A stretch of 64,000 bases of DNA from an uncultured Clostridium sp. (GTDB lineage: Bacteria; Bacillota; Clostridia; TANB77; CAG-508): NCBI GenBank assembly GCA_947427205.1, contig CANEHB010000001.1:150574-214573 (forward strand). The letters run 5' to 3'. The first letter of the stretch is position 1, and each line of letters starts with the position of its first letter. This document shows positions 57,121 through 61,846 of the stretch, in pieces. The notes under the pieces were generated by a model that was not told the DNA's origin, did no database searches, and was given only the letters and a program-made list of their open reading frames with translations. Both the position numbers and the translations under genes were made by a program.

Positions 57121-57768
57121 ATGGAAAAGCAGCCTAGTCATAAAGGGAAAAGATTTATTGAAGAAAAACCAAATAAAAAAAAGTTTTTAATCCCAATAAT
57201 TCTTGTAGCTATTATAGTGGTTGTAGCCATATGCATTTGGTTGAATTGTAAAAAAATTAACGAGTACATACCAACAAATACAGATGAAACAAATACTATA
57301 GTAGAAAATCCAGTAACTGAAATCAATACTGTAAAGGAACTTGAAACAGTAGATGTAAGTGAATTACCAAATAAAATGGGAAGTTATAAAGTTATTGGTG
57401 AATTAGTAATTGATAAAATTGATGTAAAGAAGAATATTCTGGAAAAAACAGATGACGCTTCATTAAATTTATCAGTAACCAAGTTTTACGGAGGAGATAT
57501 AAACGGGATAGGAAATTTTTGTATAACAGGTCATAACTACAAAAATTTACTTAAAAGATTAAAGGAATTGGAAGTAGGAGACACATTTGATTTAATCAAT
57601 AAAGAGACCAAAACAAAAGTTACATATAAAATTTATAAAATATATACTTGTAACCCAGAGGATATAGATTGTTTATATCCACCTGAAGAAGAAGTGAGAG
57701 AGGCTACTTTAATTACATGTAATCCTGGAGGAGTAACAAGACTTATATGTAAGGCACGAGAAATATAG
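57121..57768 (+). CDS. Sortase (cysteine transpeptidase) with N-terminal membrane anchor
   Basis: TM helix near the N-terminus. Catalytic His in ...FCITGHNY.... TLxTC active-site motif (ATLITCNPGG). Conserved Arg near the C-terminus. Confidence 0.85.
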   Translation: MEKQPSHKGKRFIEEKPNKKKFLIPIILVAIIVVVAICIWLNCKKINEYIPTNTDETNTIVENPVTEINTVKELETVDVSELPNKMGSYKVIGELVIDKIDVKKNILEKTDDASLNLSVTKFYGGDINGIGNFCITGHNYKNLLKRLKELEVGDTFDLINKETKTKVTYKIYKIYTCNPEDIDCLYPPEEEVREATLITCNPGGVTRLICKAREI

Positions 57769-57826
57769 ATAAAGCTTAATTTAGATATTAAAAAGAAATA
57801 TATAAATAAGAAAGGAATTTTTAAAA

Positions 57827-58588: not shown

Positions 58589-61500
58589 ATGAACAAAAAA
58601 ATTAAAATAGTTTCTGGCATTGCTTTAGCAGGTATTTTAACTTTAAATGTATTTAATACAAAAACTTTAGCAGCAGAAATTGAAACTCAAATTGCTAAAA
58701 TACCATATAACGAATTAGTAAGTGGTGTAGCAAATGTAGTACCAGTAATATTAAATGGAAAAAATGATACATTAACAGTTGAAGAAATAAAAACAGTATA
58801 TACAAAAGCTACAGATTTTAAAGGAAATGATGAAAATAAAGTGGCTACAGGAGATACATTTAAAGTAGATGGAAAAACATATACAGTTTTAGTATATGGA
58901 GATGTTGATAAAAACGGAGTTTTAACTTCTGATGATGCATTATTAATTGAAAAACATAATGTAGGATTAGAAAACTTTGATAATCTATTAACTGTTGCAT
59001 CTGATGTAGATGCTAGAGATGGAAAACATACTTCAGATGATTCATTAAGAGTTAAAAGATTTAATGTAGGTATGGTAGACACAGTTGTTGATGAAATGCC
59101 AAAAGAAGAAACAACTGTAAAACCACCAGTTGATGAAAACTATAACTATACAGTTACAGTTAATGAAAACAACATGATAAATAATATGAATGAAACAGCT
59201 TCTAAAATAGATGTAAGTCTTAAAGAAGAAATCAAAACAGCAAAAAATTTAAGTTTAGTAATTACAGATTCAGCAGATCCTGCTAATACTAAGACAGTAG
59301 TAGTAGCAGTACCTGCAAATACATCAAAATTAATCACTATAACAGAAGACTTAAGTGGTTTAGCTGATGGAGATATATCTTTTGAATTAAAAGATGGAAA
59401 AGAAGTAGTAGGAAAAGGAACTTTCGTAAAAAATACTGTTAATCCAGCAGAAGTAAGCGTGTCTACAAATCGTATAAATGCAGATAAAGCTACTGCATCT
59501 TTAACATATTATGGAGAAGGTACAGCTACAAAAGTTTACTATAAAGTAGTTACTGTTGGTACAACACCTGCTCCAACAAAAGCTGAACTTTTAGAAGGAA
59601 AATCAGCTAATATAGCTGGAAATAAATTAGAAAATTATGTTGTAGCTAATGATTTAGCTACTGATACAGCATATGAAATATATTATGTAGTAGAAAATAA
59701 TTATGGTAGTGTAACAACTACACCAGCAAAATATGTTATAGCTAAAGAAAATGGTAACGTTGAACAAGAAGTTGCTGTAAAAGATATAGTAGTTCCTACA
59801 TTTAAAGCAGCAGATAAAAATGTATTTACATGGACTTTAGAAGATACTACAGATAAAAAAGTTAAAGTTACTTTATATGATGGTACAAAAATAGTTAAAG
59901 AAGAAGTATTAGTTGATGGTACAGATGATGTAACAATAGCTGATTTTTCAGATGTAATGTTAACTAAACCAGGAAAATATAAAATAGATGTTACAGTTGA
60001 AGGAAAAGCTGATGGTTCAACATATGCTTCAACAAAGATTGAATCAGCAGTAGTAGAAGTTACAGATTTAAAAGTTGCTGAAAAAGTTGCATTTAATGTA
60101 GTTTATAATGCTAATACAAGTGCTACAGAATATGTATTATCTTGGGTAGATTCTAATAATGTAGCTAATGTAGAGCAATATGATGTTGAAATATTTGATG
60201 CTGAAGGAAATTCAGTGCACACAGATACAGTAACAAGAGTAAATAATGTATTATCAACAGTTTGCACAATACCAACAAATAAAATTGATGATAACAAAGT
60301 TTATACAGCTACAGTAAAAGTAGTTGCAAAAGAAAATAATGGACCAATTATTAGTTCTAAAGTTTCTGATGAAAAAGAATTTTTTGTAGTAAATCCAGAT
60401 ATGACAACAACAGTTGAAGGGGAAAATTCTATAACATTTACTTTAGACGAAATTAAAATAAATGATAAAGTACCTACATACAAAGTAGAAGTTTATAAAG
60501 CAGTTTCAGAAATTGACAAAGTTACAGGTGCTACTATTAAAAAATTCGTAGATGTAGATACAAGAAATATAAAACCTAATAAGGATAATGAAGTTGTAAT
60601 TGATAAATTAGATAACTTTACAGAATATGCATTCAAATTAATAGCTACTGTAGACGGAATAACAGGTGAATCTGATTATATTGGAAAATCATTTGATGTA
60701 AGAACAAAACGTGCATCAGTAACAATCAACAATGTAACAATGGTTGATAGTGAAGTAGATGCTGTTGAAAATACATTCTATTATGACAATGGTCTTGCAA
60801 TAATTAAAGGTGTAAGATATGATTTTAGAGATGGAAAAGATGCAGAATATACACCAGAATTTGTAGCTTTAGTTGAATTAGTTGCAAATATGAAATTATA
60901 TCCACAAGATGTTGTAAAATTAGCAACAGCTGAAAAAATAACTTTAAACTTATTCGGTATTTCTACAAATGGTTCTAATGCTTCTGAAACAACAGTAACA
61001 TTAGGGGACGTTGGTGATACAGAAGTTGAAATAGAAGGAGCAGCATCTTTTGATAGAATAGTTAATGCTACTTCTGGAAAAATTATTTTAACAGGAGCAA
61101 ATTCTATATTTAGAATAACTGGTACTCCTGAAGAAGTAGTAGTATCAAATGGAGTAAGAGTTAGTGGAACATCTGCATATGATGCAACAATACTAGCTAA
61201 TACAACAGCTACAGTAAATGGAACAAATGTAACACCTACACAAGATGCAAAAATAAATGTTAATGATACAACATTAACTATAGCAGTTGATGGAGAATCA
61301 AATACAAATTATACATTTGAAAATAAAGAAGATCAAGCTATGACAATAGCATTTGTTGATACAAATAGTAATGGAACAGATAGACAAGTAGGAAAAGTTA
61401 CTATATTATCAAATGGTGGAACAGTTGCTGTAACATCTGATAATGTTGCTGTAACAGGTAACCTAGATGTAGAAGTACAAAAAGGTACTGCAACAGTTGA

Positions 61501-61846
61501 TATAGATGATGCTTATTTATCAGGAGATAAAACAATAGCTGTAAGTAAAGATGCAACTTCAACAGTTACTGTAACTGCAAAAGAAGCTGCACCAGCAGTA
61601 TTTGAAGATGTAGAAGTGTCAGTTGATGCTACAGATGATGAATTAGCAACTGCACTTTCAATTAGTACAGATGATGAAGAAGCATTAGCAGAAGCTAGAA
61701 CATACTTAGATTCATTTGGATTAAAAGGAACAGGTGCTAAAATAACAGTATCAGATAATGGTAATGGAGAATTAGTAGCAGTTTCTATAGTATTTGCAGA
61801 TTTAGAAAGTGATGTTACATCAACACAAATTAAAAACGTAAAATAA
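58589..61846 (+). CDS. Large secreted multi-Ig-like-domain protein (1085 aa) with N-terminal dockerin module. No LPXTG.
   Basis: Signal peptide. Two Ca-binding dockerin repeats GDVDKNGVLTSDDALLIEKHNVG and SDVDARDGKHTSDDSLRVKRFNVG. Then about 900 aa of V/T/K-rich beta-sandwich-like repeats. Confidence 0.7.
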   Translation: MNKKIKIVSGIALAGILTLNVFNTKTLAAEIETQIAKIPYNELVSGVANVVPVILNGKNDTLTVEEIKTVYTKATDFKGNDENKVATGDTFKVDGKTYTVLVYGDVDKNGVLTSDDALLIEKHNVGLENFDNLLTVASDVDARDGKHTSDDSLRVKRFNVGMVDTVVDEMPKEETTVKPPVDENYNYTVTVNENNMINNMNETASKIDVSLKEEIKTAKNLSLVITDSADPANTKTVVVAVPANTSKLITITEDLSGLADGDISFELKDGKEVVGKGTFVKNTVNPAEVSVSTNRINADKATASLTYYGEGTATKVYYKVVTVGTTPAPTKAELLEGKSANIAGNKLENYVVANDLATDTAYEIYYVVENNYGSVTTTPAKYVIAKENGNVEQEVAVKDIVVPTFKAADKNVFTWTLEDTTDKKVKVTLYDGTKIVKEEVLVDGTDDVTIADFSDVMLTKPGKYKIDVTVEGKADGSTYASTKIESAVVEVTDLKVAEKVAFNVVYNANTSATEYVLSWVDSNNVANVEQYDVEIFDAEGNSVHTDTVTRVNNVLSTVCTIPTNKIDDNKVYTATVKVVAKENNGPIISSKVSDEKEFFVVNPDMTTTVEGENSITFTLDEIKINDKVPTYKVEVYKAVSEIDKVTGATIKKFVDVDTRNIKPNKDNEVVIDKLDNFTEYAFKLIATVDGITGESDYIGKSFDVRTKRASVTINNVTMVDSEVDAVENTFYYDNGLAIIKGVRYDFRDGKDAEYTPEFVALVELVANMKLYPQDVVKLATAEKITLNLFGISTNGSNASETTVTLGDVGDTEVEIEGAASFDRIVNATSGKIILTGANSIFRITGTPEEVVVSNGVRVSGTSAYDATILANTTATVNGTNVTPTQDAKINVNDTTLTIAVDGESNTNYTFENKEDQAMTIAFVDTNSNGTDRQVGKVTILSNGGTVAVTSDNVAVTGNLDVEVQKGTATVDIDDAYLSGDKTIAVSKDATSTVTVTAKEAAPAVFEDVEVSVDATDDELATALSISTDDEEALAEARTYLDSFGLKGTGAKITVSDNGNGELVAVSIVFADLESDVTSTQIKNVK

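Follow-up and report, generated by a model that had tools for sequence, protein, structure and literature searches.

The stretch of DNA analysed here, called the window below, comprises 64,000 nucleotides (64 kb) of contig CANEHB010000001.1 from an uncultured Clostridium sp. (assembly GCA_947427205.1, positions 150,574 to 214,573) and has a G+C content of about 25%. Towards its end, three co-directional open reading frames (ORFs) on the + strand encode a putative sortase, a small protein with an LPQTG sorting motif and a large secreted protein (Table 1). A first-pass annotation of the same sequence had placed a sortase, an LPQTG protein and a 1085-aa protein at this site, and the three ORFs were found exactly at the coordinates it gave. 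Each gene is preceded by a purine-rich ribosome-binding site, and a terminator scan found no terminator-like sites between them. The sortase, cohesin and dockerin genes, as we name them below, probably constitute a three-gene operon with a divergent helix-turn-helix (HTH) regulator. Our explanation as a whole, which we hold to be probable, is that this operon builds a two-part surface structure, in which a sortase-anchored cohesin holds the large protein.

Three independent lines of prediction, namely fold, orthologue profile and window-clade profile, indicate that the N-terminal domain of the small protein is a shortened cohesin. The AlphaFold2 (AF2) model of this domain, built from five sequences (predicted local distance difference test score, pLDDT, 86; predicted template modelling score, pTM, 0.78), is all-beta with about ten strand segments and agrees with the nine-stranded beta jelly-roll fold of cohesins. 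Its best Foldseek match in the PDB is the cohesin-like module 2jh2 of C. perfringens (E = 1.5e-5, TMq 0.74), followed by C. acetobutylicum CohA2 in cohesin-dockerin complexes and by an A. fulgidus cohesin. In sequence searches, six of the nine syntenic orthologues match Pfam Cohesin (PF00963; best 2.8e-10), and the profile of the orthologues finds the NagJ cohesin chains in the PDB at 7e-6. Moreover, a profile made from the window clade only retrieved 64 of 1.8 billion representative proteins, and four of ten tested among these passed the Pfam Cohesin cut-off (24.1 bits). The cohesin fold, for which the first-pass annotation had suggested structure prediction as a check, is thereby upheld. The alignment shows that the window clade carries deletions relative to its orthologues, yet about ten strands remain in the model; hence the shortening appears to be in loops.

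The rest of the small protein agrees equally with what had been described from the sequence, that is, a Pro-rich stalk and a sorting signal behind a beta-rich domain. The stalk differs in length and repeat number among orthologues. It leads into LPQTG, the hydrophobic stretch VNYAAVAMIALAVVAVVAGTI and the tail KLNNK, so that all elements of a sorting signal are present. L200, Q202, T203 and G204 are invariant in an alignment of nine orthologues, and the variants LVQTG, LNQTG, YPQTG and LSQTG are seen among orthologues.

The large protein carries, close to its N-terminus, a segment (residues 101-162) that on profile evidence is a dockerin. When the whole protein is scored against Pfam Dockerin_1 (PF00404), it reaches 18.5 bits, below the cut-off of 22.9, while the isolated segment of the window protein scores 25.4 bits (E = 1.7e-5), above it. 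All 12 orthologue segments match the same family (best 6.9e-14), and the orthologue profile finds solved dockerins in the PDB down to 5.3e-14. The first F-hand loop is canonical and complete (D105-V-D107-K-N109-G110 ... D116), and this F-hand is probably calcium-dependent. Recognition positions 9-11 are highly variable among orthologues, yet repeat 1 matches repeat 2 within each protein; the window dockerin, for instance, has T-S-D at these positions in both repeats. The two repeats agree on average at 1.91 of the 3 positions within a protein and at 0.50 between proteins, and at positions 10-11 the values are 1.33 of 2 and 0.26 (43 orthologues); in both comparisons none of 10000 permutations reached the value within proteins. 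Such two-fold symmetry of the recognition positions is expected of a dockerin selected for a protein partner. Directly before the dockerin, in the position of an X-module, lies a conserved module of about 70 aa (AF2 confidence 62-70). It recurs, for example in L049, L054 and L056 in our labelling of the related loci, on proteins of 1380-1606 aa whose bodies differ and whose genes follow those of membrane-anchored cohesins. We found no LPXTG motif, wall-binding element or other recognised anchor in the large protein, and the dockerin stands as its sole anchoring candidate, as had been supposed. The computed evidence thus supports the earlier interpretation: within the reach of these predictions, of the outcomes named there as refuting it, neither a non-cohesin fold of the N-terminal domain nor a dockerin-like segment devoid of calcium-binding geometry was seen, although the second calcium loop is atypical.

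Judged by its sequence, the first gene of the cassette is taken to encode a functional sortase that fits none of the defined classes. It matches Pfam Sortase (PF04203) at E = 7.4e-16 and has an N-terminal membrane anchor; H138 and C200 are invariant across 49 distinct orthologues, and a TR motif follows seven residues past the Cys (R207), most orthologues keeping TLITC-NPGG-x-TR. No class is assigned because no NCBIfam sortase class model comes near its cut-off (class C 55.6 versus 160, class E 37.5 versus 160, class D 33.9 versus 165). PDB sortases match weakly (1e-5 to 1e-3), among them 4d7w, which we take to be C. perfringens SrtD. A preference for the substrate LPQTGS has been reported for C. 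perfringens SrtD (PMC4498605), and the LPQTG of the anchor protein agrees with it. As a first step in the assembly, the membrane-bound sortase would thus cut the 230-aa protein between the T and G of LPQTG and link it to peptidoglycan, and the Pro-rich stalk would keep the N-terminal cohesin outside the wall; given the strong homology, this anchoring of the small protein is very likely.

Alternatively, the sortase could be a class C-like enzyme of the pilus type, building a fibre from copies of the small LPQTG protein, and the cohesin-like domain would then be a pilin or Ig-like adhesin domain. The best NCBIfam match and several PDB matches of the sortase are indeed class C or fimbrial, all of them weak, and non-cohesin beta-sandwiches occur among the Foldseek matches of the N-terminal domain. 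However, the class C score is far too low, by our reading of the sequences the sortase has neither a lid motif nor a membrane anchor at its C-terminus and the small protein lacks a pilin motif, and there is one substrate gene, whose product has the long Pro-rich stalk typical of anchors that span the wall. The sequence profiles, moreover, specifically indicate cohesins. On these grounds we rejected the pilus hypothesis, to which we give hardly any chance of being right.

Some related sortases deviate from the conserved form. Those of five loci (L005:4545-5231, L009:4551-5243, L017:4547-5212, L025:4430-5113 and L030:4539-5225) read NTRRI... after TLITC instead of the consensus NPGGLTRLICKAREI, which resembles either a shift in frame or a genuine replacement of the C-terminus, with loss of the conserved TR motif. 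The most distant full-length relative (L010:6562-7177, the same as L041:4562-5177) has its sortase in two ORFs of 138 and 88 aa, which may reflect a pseudogene or an assembly error, and its sorting motif is LVQTG.

The compact three-gene arrangement that had been remarked upon at the window is widely conserved. The order of sortase, cohesin-LPXTG protein of about 230 aa and large dockerin protein is kept in every contig examined, down to 26-36% identity, and the divergent HTH gene lies upstream in all of them except L010. Local hidden Markov model scans gave 32 non-redundant cohesin-dockerin loci (37 before de-duplication), drawn from gut Clostridia genomes and metagenome contigs, with identities of 26-97%, the uppermost value belonging to L012 (CAMSWH010000008.1, uncultured Clostridium sp.). 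All homologues found for the large protein belong to metagenomes or metagenome-assembled genomes. In a scan of one genome per species, full-length relatives were found in uncultured gut Clostridia of human, mouse, rabbit and other animal samples. The cassette has different neighbours in different lineages: FtsX and holA flank it in one, rpsI and infC are found beside it in a second, and further surroundings occur as well. An adjacent sortase gene is present for 42 LPXTG-type cohesin proteins and absent for 3, and none of the 17 cohesin proteins with a C-terminal membrane helix or no anchor has one; the 12 apparent exceptions to this pairing of sortase and signal are mostly variant motifs (LNQTG, YPQTG, LSQTG, NPPTG) or fusions. 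The adjacency of cohesin and dockerin thus persists through the switch from sortase anchoring to a C-terminal membrane helix. Taken together, the comparative evidence suggests that the conserved functional pair is that of cohesin and dockerin protein, with the sortase as an accessory for the LPXTG version.

In three loci (L048, L051 and L058) a single ORF encodes both cohesin and dockerin. Two of these, L051:3390-5861 (824 aa) and L058:1673-4258 (862 aa), come from independent assemblies, have a sortase gene upstream and contain cohesin, stalk, LPQTG (LPQTN in L058), N-terminal module, dockerin and body in succession, uninterrupted by any membrane segment or further signal peptide. Their products could be precursors split by sortase or self-associating polymers. 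The third, an 878-aa ORF (L048:5092-7725), runs in frame from cohesin-LPKTG-hydrophobic-KMKK into an apparent signal peptide of a dockerin protein (MKKYSFIKNLL...STYA), and no sortase was found in that locus.

Other arrangements were seen in further loci. In five of them (L049, L054, L056, L064 and L084) cohesin ORFs of 350-412 aa have a plain C-terminal membrane helix in place of LPXTG and no adjacent sortase, and the downstream partner of 1380-1606 aa has the same N-terminal module plus dockerin. A second cassette type, composed of a cohesin protein (about 365 aa, LPKTG), a sortase and a protein of about 670-770 aa with a C-terminal dockerin, occurs in L066, L069, L073-L075, L078, L081, L083, L085, L087 and L091. 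Its dockerins have the recognition signature S-V in both repeats, unlike those of the main cassette. In L024 (1-2649) and L027 (1-2475) the main cassette is immediately preceded by sortase and dockerin genes of this second type, and L006 encodes C-terminal dockerin proteins similar to those of this type. In L052, L060, L061, L063, L068, L076, L079, L086 and L090 a C-terminal-dockerin protein is followed by an adjacent cohesin protein of about 450-650 aa. Because the hosts of these pairs are labelled Lachnospiraceae, Muribaculaceae, Bacteroidales and Bacilli, neighbouring cohesin-dockerin pairs are widespread beyond this Clostridia lineage.

The body of the large protein is predicted to be a rod. 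Its array of about five fibronectin type III (FN3)/Ig-like domains is modelled mostly with pLDDT 75-90, Pfam fn3 is matched by ten of 11 orthologues, and Foldseek retrieves tandem-FN3 ectodomains and fibronectin at around 1e-11. The C-terminal region includes a beta-rich part with short strands (aa about 800-1000) and closes with a small alpha/beta part; in the Foldseek search, which used the whole model, the FN3 array dominates, so that the search is uninformative on this domain. Two motifs near the C-terminus are kept in all orthologues, one of them SFGL-x-G-x-G-A about 40 residues before the end and the other I-x-N-[LVI]-K at the extreme end (window 61829-61843, aa 1081-1085), down to 26% overall identity. 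Pfam and Foldseek searches found no catalytic domain. With the dockerin at the N-terminus, the rod of FN3/Ig domains would project away from the cell, and so would the beta-rich C-terminal domain, which is conserved. From this architecture we tentatively suggest, at somewhat less than even odds, that the large protein is a fibrillar adhesin or a component of a surface coat and not a carrier of enzymes.

Between the anchoring and this outward display lies the central step, in which the secreted 1085-aa protein would dock non-covalently on the cohesin by its N-terminal module plus dockerin. Homology, conserved gene adjacency and natural fusions make such cohesin-dockerin capture likely. Several observations weigh against it, or against the explanation as a whole. 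The small protein of the window itself does not match Pfam Cohesin; its Pfam and NCBIfam matches are Ig-like and below threshold, and its sequence search against the PDB gave only matches to the low-complexity stalk. At 107 aa, the domain is about 30 residues shorter than typical cohesins. CLIPPER 9ifr, CARDB and YcnI are also in its Foldseek list, and because such other small beta-sandwiches match too, the fold evidence is not exclusive when taken alone and it is the sequence profiles that carry the cohesin case. The dockerin forms three helices in the AF2 model, but with pLDDT 47-60. Two DxDxDG repeats had been claimed for it, and of these the first stands as canonical; the second loop, D-x-x-N-D-G in other orthologues, reads D139-V-D141-A-R-D144-G145 ... 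D151 in the window, where a one-residue insertion shared by the window clade makes its calcium geometry uncertain. Mutual information between cohesin columns and the recognition columns of the dockerin (n = 31 pairs) shows no excess over control columns, which were entropy-matched columns from the body of the large protein; the repeat-1 columns did not pass the column filters. As for the distal end, a profile of the C-terminal 375 aa has no relative in the PDB at E<=10, and neither Foldseek nor PDB profile searches point to a ligand or function of this region.

One might conclude from the null co-variation, the atypical second F-hand and the divergent cohesin without a Pfam match that the two proteins do not bind at all and are merely co-regulated surface proteins, the dockerin serving another partner or acting as a calcium-binding, stabilising module. 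We consider this improbable, because the adjacency survives both deep divergence and a change in the mode of anchoring, and cohesin-dockerin fusions exist in three independent assemblies. The fast and symmetric evolution of the recognition positions of the dockerin also implies a protein partner, and no other cohesin was found nearby. In Cellulosilyticum lentocellum an adjacent single pair does bind (PMC13487519).

If the two proteins bind, the anchored cohesin could still be a general hub for several dockerin proteins encoded elsewhere, with the giant protein as one client and the system therefore not minimal. This would fit with the neighbours of some cassettes, namely a dockerin-bearing M26 peptidase of 2773 aa in L005, a dockerin-bearing SH3_3/Big_2 protein of 646 aa in L006 and dockerin proteins of 372 and 750 aa in L024 and L027, and also with Limousia cSca5, which is predicted to bind many dockerins (PMC12997984). 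However, the extra dockerins in L006, L024 and L027 show S-V at positions 10-11 in both repeats, and this signature matches the dockerins of the second cassette type in L081-L087. A signature shared with a separate cassette type suggests orthogonal pairs rather than a shared hub. In addition, there is no other dockerin in the window, where one dockerin, one cohesin-like protein and one LPXTG substrate are present, all of them in the cassette. We therefore regard the hub as unlikely, albeit deserving consideration.

The explanation that we favour can be extended to a bolder one, in which the cassette is a self-contained and hitherto undescribed surface-fibril module of uncultured gut Clostridia. 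Here a giant, non-enzymatic adhesin or coat protein with an FN3 rod would be held by non-covalent docking in place of a direct covalent link to the wall, and the recognition code would be private to each cassette type and quick to evolve. The fused ORFs of L051 and L058 would be single precursors of anchor and client joined at an internal LPQTG, which might be split by sortase or might polymerise head-to-tail. Taken together, these propositions are speculative and we think them rather doubtful.

Table 1. Coordinates of the predicted features in and around the cassette (window positions).
Feature	Position	Strand	Basis or remark
XRE-family HTH regulator gene, divergent, adjoining the cassette	56626..56937	-	Pfam HTH_3, E = 8.5e-15
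Promoter-like site TTGACT-17-TAGAAT upstream of the sortase gene, candidate operon promoter	57003..57031	+	consensus scan
Perfect 12-nt inverted repeat TTAAAGATACTT / AAGTATCTTTAA in the sortase gene leader, just upstream of its ribosome-binding site	57057..57082	+	
Putative sortase gene, 215 aa	57121..57768	+	
Sortase catalytic candidates H138, C200, R207	within 57121..57768	+	
LPQTG anchor protein gene, 230 aa	57827..58519	+	
Signal peptide, aa 1-26, ending ...NVNA/A	57827..57904	+	sequence reading; strongly conserved in orthologues
Predicted shortened cohesin domain, aa 27-133	57905..58225	+	AF2 model, Foldseek, orthologue profiles
Pro/Thr/Glu-rich stalk, aa 134-199, presumed wall-spanning	58226..58423	+	sequence reading
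Sorting signal: LPQTG (aa 200-204), hydrophobic segment, KLNNK tail, stop codon	58424..58519	+	
Large secreted protein gene, 1085 aa	58589..61846	+	
Signal peptide, aa 1-28, ...KTLA/AE	58589..58672	+	sequence reading; conserved in orthologues
N-terminal module of about 70 aa directly before the dockerin, X-module position	58673..58888	+	conserved in all orthologues
Predicted dockerin, aa 101-165	58889..59083	+	Dockerin_1 match, PDB profile matches
Array of about five FN3/Ig-like beta-sandwich domains, aa 186-710	59144..60718	+	
C-terminal region, aa 711-1085, and stop codon	60719..61846	+	AF2 pLDDT 80-90
Hairpin resembling a terminator, with a T-rich tail, downstream of the large gene	61900..61931	+	14 pairs, 3 of them G-C

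Several elements around the three genes may be regulatory (Table 1). The assignment of the promoter-like site is weak, because such sites are no more numerous in the region than in shuffled sequence. The inverted repeat in the leader of the sortase gene is found at the equivalent place in L002, with two changes that are compatible with G-U pairing in RNA, and a second palindrome, TTAACCTA/TAGGTTAA, lies at window 57042-57060. These palindromes are possibly an operator for the HTH protein, or else a leader or RNA hairpin. The true start codon of the HTH gene may lie downstream of the listed TTG. Beyond the large gene and its hairpin follows holA. On the upstream side, an FtsX-type ABC permease is divided between ORFs of 218 and 944 aa that overlap (window 51704-55112); its orthologue in L002 and L003 is a single 1134-aa protein, and the split may be due to a frameshift or a sequencing error.

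Should the proposed structure be real, anchoring by cohesin and dockerin would reach beyond complexes that degrade polysaccharides and would include the display of a large surface protein that is not an enzyme, and this in many uncultured gut Clostridia of humans, mice, rabbits and other animals. The large protein would then be a candidate factor for adhesion to host or substrate in poorly known gut commensals. Furthermore, a cohesin of about 107 aa, shorter than typical ones, may serve as a small display or affinity module, and the quick, symmetric evolution of the recognition residues together with the second cassette type would provide a natural set of possibly orthogonal pairs for studies of specificity.

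The novelty implied by the first-pass annotation is smaller than it suggested, since sortase-anchored proteins with a single cohesin are known, namely ScaE (PMC4266597) and cSca5 (PMC12997984). A search of full-text literature for cohesin, dockerin and sortase found no description of the cassette, which is no proof that it is undescribed. In the window, neither dockerin-bearing glycoside hydrolases nor multi-cohesin scaffoldins, the hallmarks of a cellulosome or other enzyme-scaffolding complex, were found, and no carbohydrate-active enzyme (CAZyme) context was seen in it or among the cassette-flanking genes of the eleven contigs with gene tables examined. The closest solved relatives of the cohesin, by profile (7e-6) and by fold, are the C. 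perfringens NagJ/NagH modules (2jh2, 2o4e, 2ozn), which are likewise non-cellulosomal and from a low-GC Clostridium. They are embedded in large secreted enzymes, where they link one enzyme to another, and are not known to be carried on a dedicated sortase-anchored scaffold.

Another of the closest known systems is ScaE of R. flavefaciens, whose one cohesin is anchored by sortase and binds the X-dockerin of CttA, a protein of adhesion (PMC4266597). Both systems have one cohesin attached to peptidoglycan by a C-terminal sortase motif and a large non-catalytic client, whose dockerin has an adjacent extra module and which links, or here would link, the wall to an external target. However, the X-dockerin of CttA is C-terminal and the dockerin of the window protein N-terminal, and CttA has cellulose-binding carbohydrate-binding modules where our protein has an FN3 rod and an unassigned C-terminal domain. 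Moreover, ScaE is part of a large cellulosome, whereas no CAZyme context is seen here, and the present cassette has its own sortase and HTH regulator and a cohesin about 30 residues shorter. We detected no sequence similarity to ScaE, which is absent from the PDB profile matches of the small-protein orthologues.

Limousia pullorum cSca5, a small cohesin-LPxTG anchor of the mucinolysome whose gene is expressed more highly than any other in its genome (PMC12997984), resembles the small protein in having one N-terminal cohesin and a C-terminal LPxTG, in belonging to a gut member of the Clostridia and in its proposed role as a wall anchor for dockerin proteins. The likeness is one of architecture, and many dockerins of glycoside hydrolases and scaffoldins are predicted partners of cSca5, whereas one adjacent non-enzymatic giant is the candidate here. 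ClcC and ClcD of Cellulosilyticum lentocellum are a lone pair of adjacent cohesin and dockerin genes, in line with the idea of a minimal system, and form a heterodimer in vitro (PMC13487519); that pair enhances cellulase activity, and the abstract mentions neither a sortase nor LPXTG. The principle of anchoring is thus already known, and what sets the present cassette apart is the compact operon with its own sortase and regulator, the N-terminal dockerin, the non-enzymatic FN3-rod client, the shortened cohesin, the lack of a CAZyme context in the window and around the cassette in the contigs examined, and the broad conservation among uncultured gut Clostridia.

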